From Patescibacteria group bacterium (GTDB taxonomy: Bacteria; Patescibacteriota; Dojkabacteria; JAKAPS01): 64,000 bases of DNA. The stretch covers positions 39,289 to 103,288 of the forward strand of contig JANWIC010000007.1 in assembly GCA_025450075.1 (NCBI GenBank). The letters are read 5' to 3'. The position numbers were made by a program, and so were the translations under genes. Position 1 is the stretch's first letter. Every line of letters begins with the position of its first letter. The notes under the pieces were generated by a model, which saw only the letters and a list, made by a program, of their open reading frames with translations, was not told the DNA's origin and ran no database searches. Positions 22,416-52,874 of this stretch are shown here, piece by piece.

Positions 22416-22652
22416 ATGGAAAATCATATCTGGGTATGTGAATGTATAAATGGAAGTGATGGTGAAATAGTTATTAGAACACCATTATCTGAGGAACAAT
22501 TAGCTAGTTTGAAAAATAATCCTGATATTCCTGAAACAATATGTAATAATGGTGATATTGTTTGTCAGGATTGTGGGATAACTTTTGGTAACAAACCTAG
22601 AAAACATACTTCTCGAAATTCTGTTGCTGATATCGAAAATAATCTCGAATAG
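22416..22652 (+). CDS. small zinc-ribbon protein (78 aa)
   Basis: CECINGSDGE...CNNGDIVCQDC; lies between the divergent kinase-like genes. Confidence 0.35.
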   Translation: MENHIWVCECINGSDGEIVIRTPLSEEQLASLKNNPDIPETICNNGDIVCQDCGITFGNKPRKHTSRNSVADIENNLE

Positions 22653-25620: not shown

Positions 25621-26045
25621 TGGTGGAGATGGGGGGAGTCGAACCCCCGTACAAGACAAAAGAACAGATATAGTACTACAAGCTTACTTAGCTTCGTTTT
25701 TTTACATTCAGATCCTCAAAGCTAAGAAAAAAGATCATGAAAGGATATAATTAAGTACATATCAAGTTGCTATATCAGACAGCATGACATATACCTGACT
25801 GTTTTTTTGCCCTACTATTCCCATCAGGCGAGGTTTAGTAAAACACCAGCGATCTAATTTAGATATATGCTGGAGTATAAGCTGGAGCTCTGAAGAAATT
25901 AACTACAGAAGCTACTGTTGCCTGTACTTTTTGACTGAATGTGTTTGCATTTATGTCATTGGTACGTTTTTTTACGAAGTTATTACCATAATCTTCGGCT
26001 TGCTATATAAGCCCTATTTACCCTGGCGAAACCAAATACATCCCC
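25621..26045 (-). ncRNA. ssrA: tmRNA (ssrA)
   Basis: 5' GGGGATGTATTTGGTTTCGCCAGGG (cf. conserved GGGG...GGAUUCGACGGG). 3' GGGGGTTCGACTCCCCC-CATCTCC-A-CCA. The acceptor has a G3:U70 (Ala identity) pair and an encoded CCA. A candidate tag ORF starts GCA AAC (A N...). Confidence 0.75.
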
Positions 26046-38305: not shown

Positions 38306-38782
38306 ATGGGTCAAGAACGTGAAAGTTCTGCCCCAGATGATGTCTTACCTCCTATAACCTCACCGGATGAAGTTATATTAAACTTATACCTTTACTTCGG
38401 GTTTGAAGATGTTTACCCATTCTCATATATAAAGTCACGAATTGCAAATTATCGACCATATTTTGATTCTTGGAAAATGGCAATCCTTGAGAAAGATTCC
38501 AATGCTTCCGAAATTGATATTGATTATACAATAGCCCTTAAATGTTGCTTAATGTTAAGTGATATCTTTAAGGTAGAAGTAATGAGATGTCCTGATTATG
38601 AAAGAACTAAGAACGAACTATGGGTAATAAGCGATCCAAAAGATACCTTGGGTTTAGGACAATTTCATCTACTTACCTTTAAATTTTGGGGACAATTAGG
38701 AATAGTCCATCTAATGCAAGATAATAGAAATGATCTCGATGATGAAGTGATTATAGTTTTAGACAGAGACTCATTGAACTAA
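38306..38782 (+). CDS. hypothetical protein (158 aa) inserted between fusA and tuf
   Basis: Its ATG overlaps the fusA stop (TAATATG). No recognisable family. Confidence 0.5.
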   Translation: MGQERESSAPDDVLPPITSPDEVILNLYLYFGFEDVYPFSYIKSRIANYRPYFDSWKMAILEKDSNASEIDIDYTIALKCCLMLSDIFKVEVMRCPDYERTKNELWVISDPKDTLGLGQFHLLTFKFWGQLGIVHLMQDNRNDLDDEVIIVLDRDSLN

Positions 38783-38922: not shown

Positions 38923-38968
38923 ATTGTGAATGAAAAAATTTCACAATGTTTTGAGTGTGTGCTATAAT
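38923..38968 (+). promoter_or_regulatory. tuf promoter (TTCACA -17- TGcTATAAT, extended -10) with a perfect 8-bp inverted repeat ATTGTGAA-N9-TTCACAAT overlapping the -35
   Basis: -35 at 38940-38945 and -10 at 38963-38968 with TG at 38960-38961. Palindrome arms are 38923-38930 and 38940-38947. Confidence 0.45.
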
Positions 38969-39007
38969 GAACCCGCTCAGTCAAATTTTATATTACTTAC
39001 TACACAA

Positions 39008-40210
39008 ATGGCAACTTTCGACAGAAGCAAACCACACAAGAATGTAGGTACTATTGGTCACGTAGATCATGGTAAGACTACTCTTACAGCAGCAATTTTA
39101 AAAGTTCTTGCAGCAGCAGGTCATGCAGCACAAACAAAAGGAGTACAGGATCTTGATAAAGCTCCTGAATCCCGAAGTCGTGGTATTACTATTGCTACGG
39201 CTCATACAGAATATGAGACAGACAAGTTTCACTACGCACATGTAGACTGTCCTGGTCACGCTGACTATATTAAGAACATGATTACCGGTGCTGCTCAAAT
39301 GGATGGAGCTATCCTCGTTGTTGCAGCTACTGATGGACCTATGCCTCAAACACGAGAGCATATTTTGCTTTCCCGACAGGTAGGAGTTCCAAAAATTGTT
39401 GTATTTATGAACAAGGTTGATATGGTAGAAGATGCAGAGTTATTGGATCTTGTTGAACTTGAAATACGTGAAGTACTTTCCCGATACGAATTCCCAGGAG
39501 ATGATACTCCTGTAATTCGAGGCTCAGCTCTAAAGGCTTTAGAATGTGCTTGCGGAAAAAGAGATTGTGAATGGTGCGGAAAAATCTTGGAACTTATGGA
39601 TCAAGTCGATGATTATATCCCAGTACCAGAACGAGCAATTACTAAACCATTCTTGATGCCTGTTGAAGACGTTTTCTCAATTGAAGGACGTGGAACTGTA
39701 GCAACAGGAAGAGTTGAACGAGGAGAAGTAAAGGTAAACGAAGAAGTGGAACTGGTTGGAATTGTAAAAGATGCAAAAAAACTTGTCGTAACCGGTGTAC
39801 AGATGTTCAACAAAGATTTGGACAAAGGTATGGCAGGAGATAACATTGGAGTACTTCTCCGTGGTATTAAAAGAGAAGAAGTAGAACGAGGACAAGTTCT
39901 TGCAAAACCAGGAAGCATTACTCCTCATACAGATTTTGAAGCAGAAGTATACGTTTTAACTAAAGAAGAAGGTGGACGACATACTCCTTTCTTGAAAGGA
40001 TACAGACCACAATTCTATCTAAGAACTACTGATGTTACTGGAGAAGTCACCTCACTTCCCGATGGAGTTGAAATGGTGATGCCAGGAGACAATACCAAAG
40101 TAACAGTATCACTCGTTACTCCGGTAGCTATGGAAGATGGACTAAGATTTGCAATTCGTGAAGGTGGAAGAACAGTAGGAGCAGGAGTTGTAACTAAGAT
40201 TTTGAAGTAA
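39008..40210 (+). CDS. tuf: elongation factor Tu (with a 5-aa Cys-rich insertion)
   Basis: [26 protein letters not shown]. Full-length alignment to EF-Tu. Unusual [20 protein letters not shown] where E. coli has ALEGDAEWEAKILEL. Confidence 0.95.
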
Positions 40211-45348: not shown

Positions 45349-45720
45349 ATGGTACAGTCACAAACAATATTAAAATGCGCAGATAACACAGGAGCAAAAG
45401 AACTTCTTGTTATTGGAGTAAGAGTCGGTTCTAACCATGAGTTTGCATCAGTTGGTGATATTGTCAGCTGCAGCGTAAAAAAAGCTCAGGCAGGCGGAAG
45501 CGTAAAGACTCATGAAAAAGTAAAGGCAGTGGTTGTTAGGACAAGAAAAGAAGTACGAAGACAAGACGGATCCTATATCCGATTTGACGATAATGCAGCA
45601 GTAATTATTGACCCTAAATCAAAAGAACCAAAAGGAACTGCAGTATTTGGCCCTGTTGCACGAGAGCTTCGGGATAGAGGATATATGAAGCTTATTAGTT
45701 TAGCTCCAGAAGTATTATGA
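45349..45720 (+). CDS. rplN: 50S ribosomal protein L14
   Basis: [19 protein letters not shown]. Confidence 0.95.
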
Positions 45721-46004
45721 AACTGAGAAAAAACGATAAAATAAAAATAGTACGTGGAAAAGACAAAGGGAAAGAGTCAGTGATTGAACGGGTTTTGCCT
45801 AAAAGCGGCAAAATATATGCAAAAGATATCAATATCGTTAAAAAACATGCAAAGGGGAGAGGTATTATCGACCTTATCAAGCCGGTTCAGGCTTCAAATG
45901 TTATGGTAATCTGTCCGAATTGCAATAAACCAACAAGAGTAGGATATAAAGTTGAAAAAGAGAAAAAAACCAGATTTTGTAAACAATGTCAAAAAGACTT
46001 CTAA
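45717..46004 (+). CDS. rplX: 50S ribosomal protein L24 (KOW) with a C-terminal C4 zinc-ribbon-like motif
   Basis: [14 protein letters not shown] (KOW), then CPNC...CKQC at the C-terminus where other L24 proteins have no Cys. Confidence 0.88.
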
Positions 46005-46774
46005 ATACGGACAATTTTGATGTCATTGGCGGAAGAAACCTGGTACAAGAAGCGCTGAAAGCAGGAAATGATGTAAAAAGGATATATATTGAAAATGCAA
46101 TAAAAGAATCGAAAAACTATGGCAATGATGCTAGAATTCATGATATAATCAGCATTGCCAGATCAAGGAATATTCCTGTTGAGTATATCTCAAGGGATGA
46201 TATCCGATTACTTGAAAAAGATGAAGGAGTAAGAACAGAAGGAGTAGCAGCATTCCTGCCACAACGAGTAGAGCTTACTGTTTCAGATATCTTTGCACTT
46301 TGTAAACAGAAAAATAAGGAACCTTTTATCATACTGGTAAATAATATCTTGTATGAGGAGAATCTTGGAGCAATACTTCGCACATGCGCTGCAGGTGGTG
46401 TTGATGCTCTCATTATTCCAAAACGGGATAACCGTTCCCTTACTCCAAATGTGAGGCGAATCTCAATGGGAGGAAGTGAATATGTACCATTAGTACGTTC
46501 AAATCTTTTTGAAGCACTTGATGAGATACATGATGAAGGAATTCAGATTATCGGTGTTGAACTAAATGGTTCAGCATACTACTATGATGCGAATCTTAGC
46601 GGCCCGATTGCAATTATCTTAGGTGGTGAAGATGCTGGTCTTACAGCTCCATTACAAAAGCGATGCGATCAGGTGGTGAAGATTCCTATGATAGGAATGA
46701 TCCAGTCACTGAATGTATCAGTAAGTACTGCGATTTTAATATATGAGAAAATACGACAGGAATGTCAAAATTAA
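45986..46774 (+). CDS. SpoU/TrmH-family RNA 2'-O-methyltransferase inserted between rplX and rplE
   Basis: LGAILRTCAAGGVDALIIP and a SPOUT C-terminal domain. Overlaps both flanking r-protein genes. Confidence 0.8.
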   Translation: MSKRLLNTDNFDVIGGRNLVQEALKAGNDVKRIYIENAIKESKNYGNDARIHDIISIARSRNIPVEYISRDDIRLLEKDEGVRTEGVAAFLPQRVELTVSDIFALCKQKNKEPFIILVNNILYEENLGAILRTCAAGGVDALIIPKRDNRSLTPNVRRISMGGSEYVPLVRSNLFEALDEIHDEGIQIIGVELNGSAYYYDANLSGPIAIILGGEDAGLTAPLQKRCDQVVKIPMIGMIQSLNVSVSTAILIYEKIRQECQN

Positions 46775-47307: not shown

Positions 47308-47502
47308 ATGGCAAAAAAATCACAAGTTGTAAAACAACAAAAATTAATGAAAAAATCAAAATACCCTACTCGTGTATATAACCGATGTCTTCGATGTGGG
47401 AGACAAGGTGCATACATGAGAGATTTTGGCATGTGCAGAATTTGTTTTAGAGAACTTGCACATAAAGGTGAAATACCGGGTGTAACAAAATCATCCTGGT
47501 AA
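47308..47502 (+). CDS. rpsN: 30S ribosomal protein S14 type Z (zinc-binding)
   Basis: 64 aa; [20 protein letters not shown]. Confidence 0.92.
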
Positions 47503-52757: not shown

Positions 52758-52874
52758 ATGAAAATTAAAGCTTCTATAAAAAAACGATGCACGGGTTGTT
52801 ACCTGGTAAAACGGGAAGGTGTTTTGTATATCTATTGCAAAACAAACCCCAAACATAAGCAAAGACAAGGATAA
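52758..52874 (+). CDS. rpmJ: 50S ribosomal protein L36 (38 aa; not in the ORF track)
   Basis: Manual translation gives [38 protein letters not shown], with the C-x2-C-x12-C-x4-H zinc motif. It starts 4 nt after infA. Confidence 0.85.

Follow-up and report, generated by a model that had tools for sequence, protein, structure and literature searches.

Bacterial ribosomal proteins uS14, bS18, uL24, bL28, bL31, bL32, bL33 and bL36 are known in C+ and C- isoforms, with and without a set of metal ligands (Makarova, Ponomarev & Koonin 2001, as that list is cited in PMC10450194). The C+ forms are established zinc binders, with uL24 among those of Thermus; thermophiles typically have C+ forms, and so do certain mesophilic lineages that evolve slowly, for instance the delta-proteobacteria (PMC10450194). 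Here we describe a similar set of ligands in the elongation factor EF-Tu encoded within a 64,000-nucleotide stretch of DNA, hereafter the window, from a Patescibacteria group bacterium (GenBank assembly GCA_025450075.1, contig JANWIC010000007.1, positions 39,289 to 103,288 of the forward strand). The protein carries four cysteines within 11 residues of its G domain. Based on comparison of its sequence with those of its homologues we propose, with a probability of roughly 0.65, that these cysteines form a structural Zn(Cys)4 staple immediately downstream of the G5 motif, and that this staple is the EF-Tu counterpart of the sites in the C+ ribosomal proteins.

The tuf gene lies at 39008..40210 (+) and encodes 400 amino acids plus stop; residue numbers below are counted from its ATG at 39008. 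The G5 motif S173-A174-L175, responsible for guanine-base recognition, is encoded at 39524..39532 (+), directly 5' of the loop. A 20-residue string translated from 39536..39595 (+) holds the knuckle C180-A-C182-G-K-R-D-C187-E-W-C190 (39545..39577, +), an 11-residue C-x-C-x4-C-x2-C in which the cysteine codons start at 39545 (C180), 39551 (C182), 39566 (C187) and 39575 (C190). Apart from these four, the mature protein has one cysteine, the universal C81 of the DCPGH motif. In phmmer alignments to all of the solved E. coli-type EF-Tu chains in the Protein Data Bank (PDB) a five-residue gap follows ALE, and the five residues without a counterpart in the E. coli-type protein are C180-A-C-G-K184 (39545..39559, +), a placement that is dependent on the alignment.

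By homology and synteny this protein is an orthodox bacterial EF-Tu, single-copy within the window. The Pfam domains GTP_EFTU, D2 and D3 scored 211.9, 68.5 and 137.7 bits, each above its cut-off, and the NCBIfam equivalog TIGR00485 gave 707 bits against a cut-off of 522. Motifs G1 to G5 are intact in the translation (G17HVDHGKT24, D80CPGH84, N135KVD138 and S173AL175), and the gene order rpsL-rpsG-fusA-(ORFan)-tuf-rpsJ-rplC-rplD is that of the str operon. An AlphaFold2 model of the protein has a mean predicted local distance difference test score (pLDDT) of 84.8, and in Foldseek it superimposes on Thermus EF-Tu bound to a GTP analogue (1EXM) with a template modelling (TM) score of 0.90 and a root-mean-square deviation of 3.0.

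The model is very confident around the knuckle, where residues 171-180, 181-190 and 191-200 have pLDDT values of 96, 96 and 97. According to DSSP the loop (residues 181-189) connects a short helix after G5 (174-180) with the final helix of the G domain (190-203). C180 closes the first of these helices, C182 and C187 lie within the loop and C190 opens the next helix in the model, and the loop begins five residues past S173-A174-L175. In the standard architecture of G domains G5 touches the guanine base and sits at the other end of the nucleotide from the gamma-phosphate and switches I and II. Since the loop adjoins G5, it should lie away from both switches. The original prediction had placed the cysteines near the switch and effector surface, and it is here that we depart from it. 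Its description of a five-residue insertion with four cysteines in a C-x-C-x4-C-x2-C arrangement is borne out by the alignments and by the translation of tuf, and the zinc site that it considered possible is supported as a prediction by the ordered loop of the AlphaFold2 model together with the conservation of the cysteines as a set, for which only His or Asp substitutes.

The evidence for a metal site comes chiefly from comparison of homologues. A full-protein similarity search found C-x-C-G-x3-C-x2-C at the same site in 116 of the 120 best matches, at 74-92% identity; these were retrieved by similarity and not by motif, and the 116 include P0239, which has Asp for the third cysteine, and a shortened variant, P0240. 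The other four comprise two chimeric artefacts together with P0129 and P0133, which have His for the first cysteine. At least 90% of these 120 homologues conserve each of C180, C182, C187, C190, G181 and G183; of the neighbouring G5 residues S173, A174 and L175, only the first is invariant (L175 is conserved in at least 90%, with SGL in some). The residues between the cysteines are variable, except for a Gly after the first and the second cysteine and an acidic residue before the third. Two candidates for close relatives lacking the cysteines, P0123 (471 amino acids) and P0125 (485 amino acids), were rejected as chimeras with duplicated EF-Tu segments; their scores are inflated, probably through misassembly.

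We then counted the cysteines per loop in two sets that had not been selected for the motif. The first was a motif-blind sample, in which metagenome contigs were scanned for an invariant 10-residue segment upstream of the loop, giving 112 readable EF-Tu genes. Here the loop holds no cysteine in 86 cases, one in 14 and four in five, and none holds two or three. The same pattern was seen in a tight Coriobacteriia/Anaerosomatales clade, with no cysteine in 78 loops, one in a single loop, four in 41 and, again, none with two or three. Because the loop contains zero, one or four cysteines in both sets, the motif is not a product of chance. Three sequences with three cysteines were found, all from the set of proteins resembling that of the window, and in each the missing position is His or Asp: H-A-C-G-K-E-D-C-E-W-C occurs in P0129 and P0133, on five and seven independent contigs, and C-G-C-G-K-A-D-D-P-N-C occurs in P0239. 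The CCCD and CCCE types of bL33 show the same kind of ligand swap (PMC10450194).

The spacing between the ligands also varies while the four cysteines are kept. Within one Coriobacteriia-like clade, at 85% identity or more, we found CxC-x4-CxxC, CxxC-x6-CxxC and CxxC-x8-CxxC. The CxxC-x6..8-CxxC architecture (for example ECTTCDANGSCEWCSS) was seen in the Coriobacteriia/Anaerosomatales EF-Tus of locus L155 (metagenome contig Ga0074195_1027413) and in P0245-P0264, and CxxC-x6..8-CxxC, CxC-x4-CxxC and Cys-less forms stand side by side in the same tight clade. The EF-Tus share two features of the C+/C- class, namely ligands in two close pairs (C180-x-C182 and C187-x2-C190 in the window protein) and the existence of orthologues and paralogs from which all of the ligands are missing together.

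Carriers of the motif are found far outside the lineage of the window. The named matches with the motif in the similarity search include Thermoanaerobacter, Caldanaerobacter, Sulfobacillus, Desulforamulus, Deferrisoma and Binataceae. A search with a 71-residue segment added fragments from Carboxydothermus and Peptococcaceae; this query returned only fragments of 125 amino acids or fewer and is therefore unusable for counting carriers. Scanning one genome per species with a degenerate DNA pattern that encodes S-[AG]-L-x-A-x-x-C-x-C-G-x3-C-x2-C gave at least 120 matches, and all of the 120 listed lie in a tuf or EF-Tu context. The phyla among the matches listed number at least 15 and include Bacillota, Dehalococcoidia/Chloroflexota, Desulfobacterota and other 'Delta' groups, Binatota, Nitrospirota, Aquificota, Actinomycetota (Thermoleophilia), Acidobacteriota, Gemmatimonadota, Planctomycetota, Omnitrophota, Leptospiraceae, WOR-3, Coatesbacteria and Patescibacteria/Saccharibacteria/Parcubacteria. 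At these 120 genome loci the four cysteines are invariant because the pattern demanded them, which does not count as evidence; the independent evidence consists of the similarity-based and motif-blind sets only. The motif-blind sample gives a frequency of about 4.5% for the four-cysteine loop (five of 112 genes, four of them canonical and one CxxC-x6-CxxC), and it shows the post-G5 loop to be a hot-spot for insertions and deletions with many unrelated Cys-free versions.

This distribution also bears on the quality of the sequence. An error of sequencing or assembly had been named in the original prediction as one finding that would overturn it. The reading frame is intact, an independent European Nucleotide Archive assembly (P0121, 92% identical to the window EF-Tu) carries the four-cysteine loop, and the same four cysteines occur in hundreds of other EF-Tu genes, where they are encoded by both TGT and TGC codons. 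Because the motif is shared in this way we consider an artefact refuted, its residual probability being close to nil. The original prediction had further implied, in calling for an ortholog comparison, that the insertion might be an acquisition of one lineage; its presence in at least 15 phyla and its behaviour in the EF-Tu trees described below speak against this. Cys4 EF-Tu is thus a widespread isoform, apparently unstudied, that is present in many phyla rather than a peculiarity of one genome. We found no account of a Cys4 or zinc EF-Tu in the full-text literature searched, a body of text outside which most subscription journals fall, and it is conceivable, if on balance doubtful, that the isoform has been described elsewhere.

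In order to follow the inheritance of the loop we built neighbour-joining trees, which carry no support values. A tree of the Cys4 EF-Tus recovered phylum-level groups, and in it the window EF-Tu groups with P0121-P0134, one member of which is named 'Patescibacteria group bacterium', adjoining Saccharibacteria and Patescibacteria loci. Because the tree recovers the phyla, the motif appears to be inherited vertically within them rather than gained recently here. We also weighed whether a single variant had spread recently by horizontal transfer, and rejected this as a general explanation, given that the Cys4 EF-Tus cluster by phylum. When the loop columns were masked, the Cys4 clades were interleaved with Cys-less clades and did not form a single clade; on these sequences the motif would have been gained or lost many times. 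P0326, a close relative that is Cys-less in other respects, has a lone cysteine in this loop (ECNEEAKK), and there are Cys-free loops of similar length, two residues shorter, with Ser, Asp or Gly at the cysteine positions, such as ESGDPxSEWGxK. The relic-like cysteine of P0326 and the loops of the latter type hint at loss more than at gain, and we infer that the motif may have been ancestral and later lost in some lineages.

A natural pair of the two forms was found on one Coriobacteriia-like contig of 215,640 nucleotides (JGI 3300040971 Ga0242423_000073), on which a Cys4 tuf and a Cys-less tuf lie about 16 kb apart. The Cys4 protein, P0246 (400 amino acids, ECSCGTEGCQWCDA), is encoded at L241 10001..11203 in the order rpsL-rpsG-fusA-tuf-rpsJ. 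The Cys-less protein, P0275 (395 amino acids, EGDEESKKAIWEL), is encoded at L242 10001..11188 in the order tRNA(Tyr, Thr, Met)-tuf-rpmG-tRNA(Trp)-secE-nusG-rplK, the genes upstream of it being tRNA-Tyr, tRNA-Thr and tRNA-Met. The two proteins are 94% identical. Nucleotides 601-1200 of the genes, their 3' 600 nucleotides, are identical at 599 of 600 positions, and this stretch stops at the knuckle; in the knuckle segment 27 of 60 positions match. We read the near-identical stretch as a putative tract of recent gene conversion, with its end falling exactly at the knuckle. As P0246 and P0275 share a contig, both forms of EF-Tu would serve the same ribosome, tRNAs and EF-Ts, which makes the knuckle an accessory feature, as does the fact that a Cys-less EF-Tu works in most bacteria.

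Taken together these comparisons are consistent with a model where the variable loop after G5 is replaced, in the C+ class of EF-Tu, by a short four-Cys knuckle. The thiolates of C180, C182, C187 and C190 would bind one Zn(II) tetrahedrally. Closed by the metal, the 11-residue loop would act as a rigid staple, fastening the G5 element and the short helix that follows it to the C-terminal helix of the G domain. A steadier nucleotide-base pocket and G-domain fold would be expected from this, at the price of one zinc per EF-Tu. We infer that the metal is zinc and that its effect is stabilising; zinc sites are thought to be stabilising in the C+ ribosomal proteins as well.

A number of observations weigh against this zinc staple. 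No PDB chain carries the motif, as judged by two sequence queries of our PDB copy, and the aligned chains without it include the reconstructed ancestral EF-Tus 6htw and 6i8r and the entry 5w7q, labelled 'consensus'. The first ligand pair is CxC rather than the canonical CxxC knuckle. In hmmscan the 31-residue knuckle peptide matched only Sina_ZnF at E-values up to 1, with 16 bits against a cut-off of 32, and neither a zinc-ribbon family nor any other zinc-motif family in Pfam or NCBIfam matched it significantly. DSSP found no strand in residues 181-189 of the model and no beta-hairpins, so that the site is not a zinc ribbon; the two beta-hairpin knuckles and small beta-sheet of a zinc-ribbon or rubredoxin-type fold are not seen. 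The organism of the window is probably a mesophile, and a rationale in terms of thermostability is therefore not directly applicable to it. Finally, inspection by eye revealed neither a Zur box nor an obvious AT-rich palindrome upstream of the P0275 tuf.

The same cysteines could serve as a redox switch, in which oxidation of the Cys4 site releases the metal or forms disulfides, loosens G5 and slows translation. Such a switch would resemble Zn-thiolate switches such as Hsp33 and is compatible with zinc binding, and four clustered thiols make for a reactive site. Many of the carriers are strict anaerobes (among them Clostridia, Dehalococcoidia, Desulfobacterota, Omnitrophota and the candidate phyla radiation), most of the well-studied aerobes have the Cys-less form, and the titles of PDB entries 8yly and 8ym3, on EF-Tu regulating photoinhibition in Synechococcus, show that EF-Tu has been studied as a redox target, though through other cysteines. 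However, the motif is also present in aerobic or oxic-soil lineages, for example Sulfobacillus, Thermoleophilia/Actinomycetes, Acidobacteriota, Gemmatimonadota and Binatota, and replacement by His or Asp preserves metal binding but not disulfide chemistry. We therefore regard a redox switch as unlikely. The list of carriers, rich in anaerobes, could also point to iron, bound either in a rubredoxin-like Fe(Cys)4 site or as a small Fe-S cluster. In many carriers the second pair reads C-P-x-C, a knuckle of rubredoxin type, and Thermus uS4 has an Fe-S cluster (PMC10450194). On the other hand, four cysteines in 11 residues, including a C-x-C, would favour a mononuclear site over a cluster, the Cys-to-His/Asp variants suit a Zn(Cys)3X site like those of the bL33 types (PMC10450194), and there are aerobes among the carriers, which together make an iron site improbable.

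If the loop bound no metal at all, it would be either surface decoration that varies between lineages or a place where a partner docks, its cysteines kept for packing or as disulfides. This would fit the many unrelated variants at the post-G5 hot-spot, and a dispensable knuckle, given that the C- paralogs and orthologues function. Yet packing or docking leaves unexplained why the cysteines come as none or four, why the intervening residues and the spacing are free and why only His or Asp replaces a cysteine, and disulfides are unlikely in the cytoplasm of anaerobes. For these reasons we think a metal-free loop very improbable.

If the zinc staple is accepted, its likeness to the C+ ribosomal proteins is close in several respects. 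EF-Tu too is a core protein of translation in which Cys4 (or Cys3His/Asp) makes up a small site; its ligands are present or absent as a set, with C+ and C- forms scattered across phyla and paralogs that may coexist; and the carrier taxa overlap, as in the thermophilic Firmicutes, Aquificota and delta-proteobacteria. There are differences as well. EF-Tu is off the published list, as that list is quoted in PMC10450194, and PMC10450194 makes no mention of EF-Tu. The first ligand pair of EF-Tu is usually CxC, unlike the CxxC of the ribosomal proteins, with CxxC versions in the Coriobacteriia-like EF-Tus; the modelled site is a loop between two helices and not a zinc ribbon; and the C- copy, in the one pair examined, lies in an ordinary tRNA-tufB-type operon.

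Comparable features are known in other proteins. The EF-Tus of Thermus thermophilus and T. aquaticus (1EFT, 1EXM and 1TTT) have an insertion at exactly this site, between ALE and the conserved E-W of the last G-domain helix, but theirs is a Cys-free loop of 10 residues (ALEEMHKNPKTKRGENEW) that holds no metal, unlike the window loop, which is five residues longer than that of E. coli and has four cysteines. Schmitt, Blanquet and Mechulam reportedly described in 2002 a Cys4 zinc knuckle of archaeal aIF2-gamma and eukaryotic eIF2-gamma. This is likewise an insertion in a G domain of the EF-Tu/SelB/eIF2-gamma family, but it is said to lie at a different place (in the N-terminal half, as CxxC...CxxC) and would not be homologous to the EF-Tu loop. 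The NCBIfam model eif2g_arch detects the relationship between the families, giving the window EF-Tu 111 bits, far under its cut-off. The SEC-C motif of SecA, YecA and YchJ (C-x-C-x8-C-[CH]) is a short bacterial zinc site, and the first ligand pair of EF-Tu resembles it in being C-x-C-G; SEC-C forms a C-terminal tail, however, unlike the internal loop of EF-Tu with its different spacing, and hmmscan gave no SEC-C (PF02810) match in the EF-Tu knuckle peptide.

C+ ribosomal proteins are encoded in the window itself. These are uL24 (45717..46004, +), with CPNC...CKQC; the short C+ form of uS14 (47308..47502, +), with CLRCG...CRIC; and the C+ form of bL36 (52758..52874, +), with CTGC...C...H. As judged from these motifs the organism keeps putatively metal-rich forms of EF-Tu, uL24, uS14 and bL36. 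The motif of L24 had been noted at the outset as a further acquisition; a uL24 with CxxC...CxxC is a known zinc-binding C+ isoform (PMC10450194).

The mechanical open reading frame (ORF) of tuf, 38930..40210 (+), is longer at the N-terminus than the likely real gene. A promoter-like site (TTCACA, 17 nucleotides, TG-TATAAT; 38940..38968, +), a consensus match only, agrees with the consensus at 11 of 12 positions and has an extended -10 element; this near-consensus site lies inside the N-terminal extension of the ORF, some 40 nucleotides 5' of the ATG at 39008. The 92% identical relative P0121 starts at residues that match this ATG. Given the start of the homologue and the promoter-like site within the upstream extension, ATG 39008 is most likely the real start. 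The sequence thereby suggests that tuf may have its own promoter and that the start of the database protein P0241 (426 amino acids) is mis-called. Between fusA and tuf, beginning two nucleotides past the fusA stop, is an ORF of 158 amino acids (38306..38782, +), with no Pfam or NCBIfam match and, in a HMMER scan of 1.84 billion representative proteins, no match other than itself. Either the str operon has taken up an ORFan here or this ORF is no gene.

Other features of the window may be recorded here. An ORF of 262 amino acids for an RNA 2'-O-methyltransferase of the SpoU family (SpoU_sub_bind and SpoU_methylase; 45986..46774, +) sits between rplX (L24) and rplE (L5), overlapping the end of the L24 gene by 19 nucleotides, and is an unusual insertion in the spc ribosomal-protein cluster. 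Ribosomal protein L4 (41239..41985, +; 248 amino acids) has a C-terminal tail rich in Lys, Ala and Thr (...KPKVEEKKTEVKTKAPVKAATKTATKSKVVKK), which a typical bacterial L4 lacks. A transfer-messenger RNA (tmRNA) gene at 25621..26045 (-) was found with an Rfam score of 125 bits, and the tag peptide that ARAGORN predicts from it, ANTFSQKVQATVASVVNFFRAPAYTPAYI, is unusually long and is without the usual ...LAA ending. Lastly, an ORF of 78 amino acids (22416..22652, +) with five cysteines, including VCEC and CQDC pairs, may be a small metal-binding protein or no gene.

EF-Tu is among the most studied and most abundant of bacterial proteins, and all of its solved structures in the PDB copy are without the Cys4 motif. 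The Cys4 isoform nevertheless accounts for about 1 in 20 environmental EF-Tu genes and spans at least 15 phyla, including the cultured thermophiles Thermoanaerobacter, Moorella and Sulfobacillus. If the site binds zinc, EF-Tu would join the C+/C- components of translation, and estimates of cellular zinc demand would shift by one zinc per EF-Tu. The two forms would offer a natural test case for the effect of a metal staple beside G5 on the stability of the G domain and on nucleotide exchange. The site would also bear on palaeothermometer work with 'resurrected ancestral EF-Tu', in that the loop may be an ancestral metal site. EF-Tu is usually the most abundant cytosolic protein, and one may speculate, with little confidence, that in carriers C+ EF-Tu and not the ribosome is the largest zinc pool and that C+/C- tuf paralogs make up a system for zinc economy or for sensing zinc and redox state. 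In such a pair the two tuf genes stay distinct at the knuckle while gene conversion seems to have homogenised the stretch beside it. Were this so, the capacity for elongation would respond directly to the metal or oxidant status of the cell, and the idea of ribosomal proteins as a zinc store would extend to a translation factor, an unrecognised determinant of zinc quotas. For the window itself the finding is an ordinary one, its EF-Tu being one member among thousands; as a class, these proteins are apparently an uncharacterised isoform of a textbook protein.

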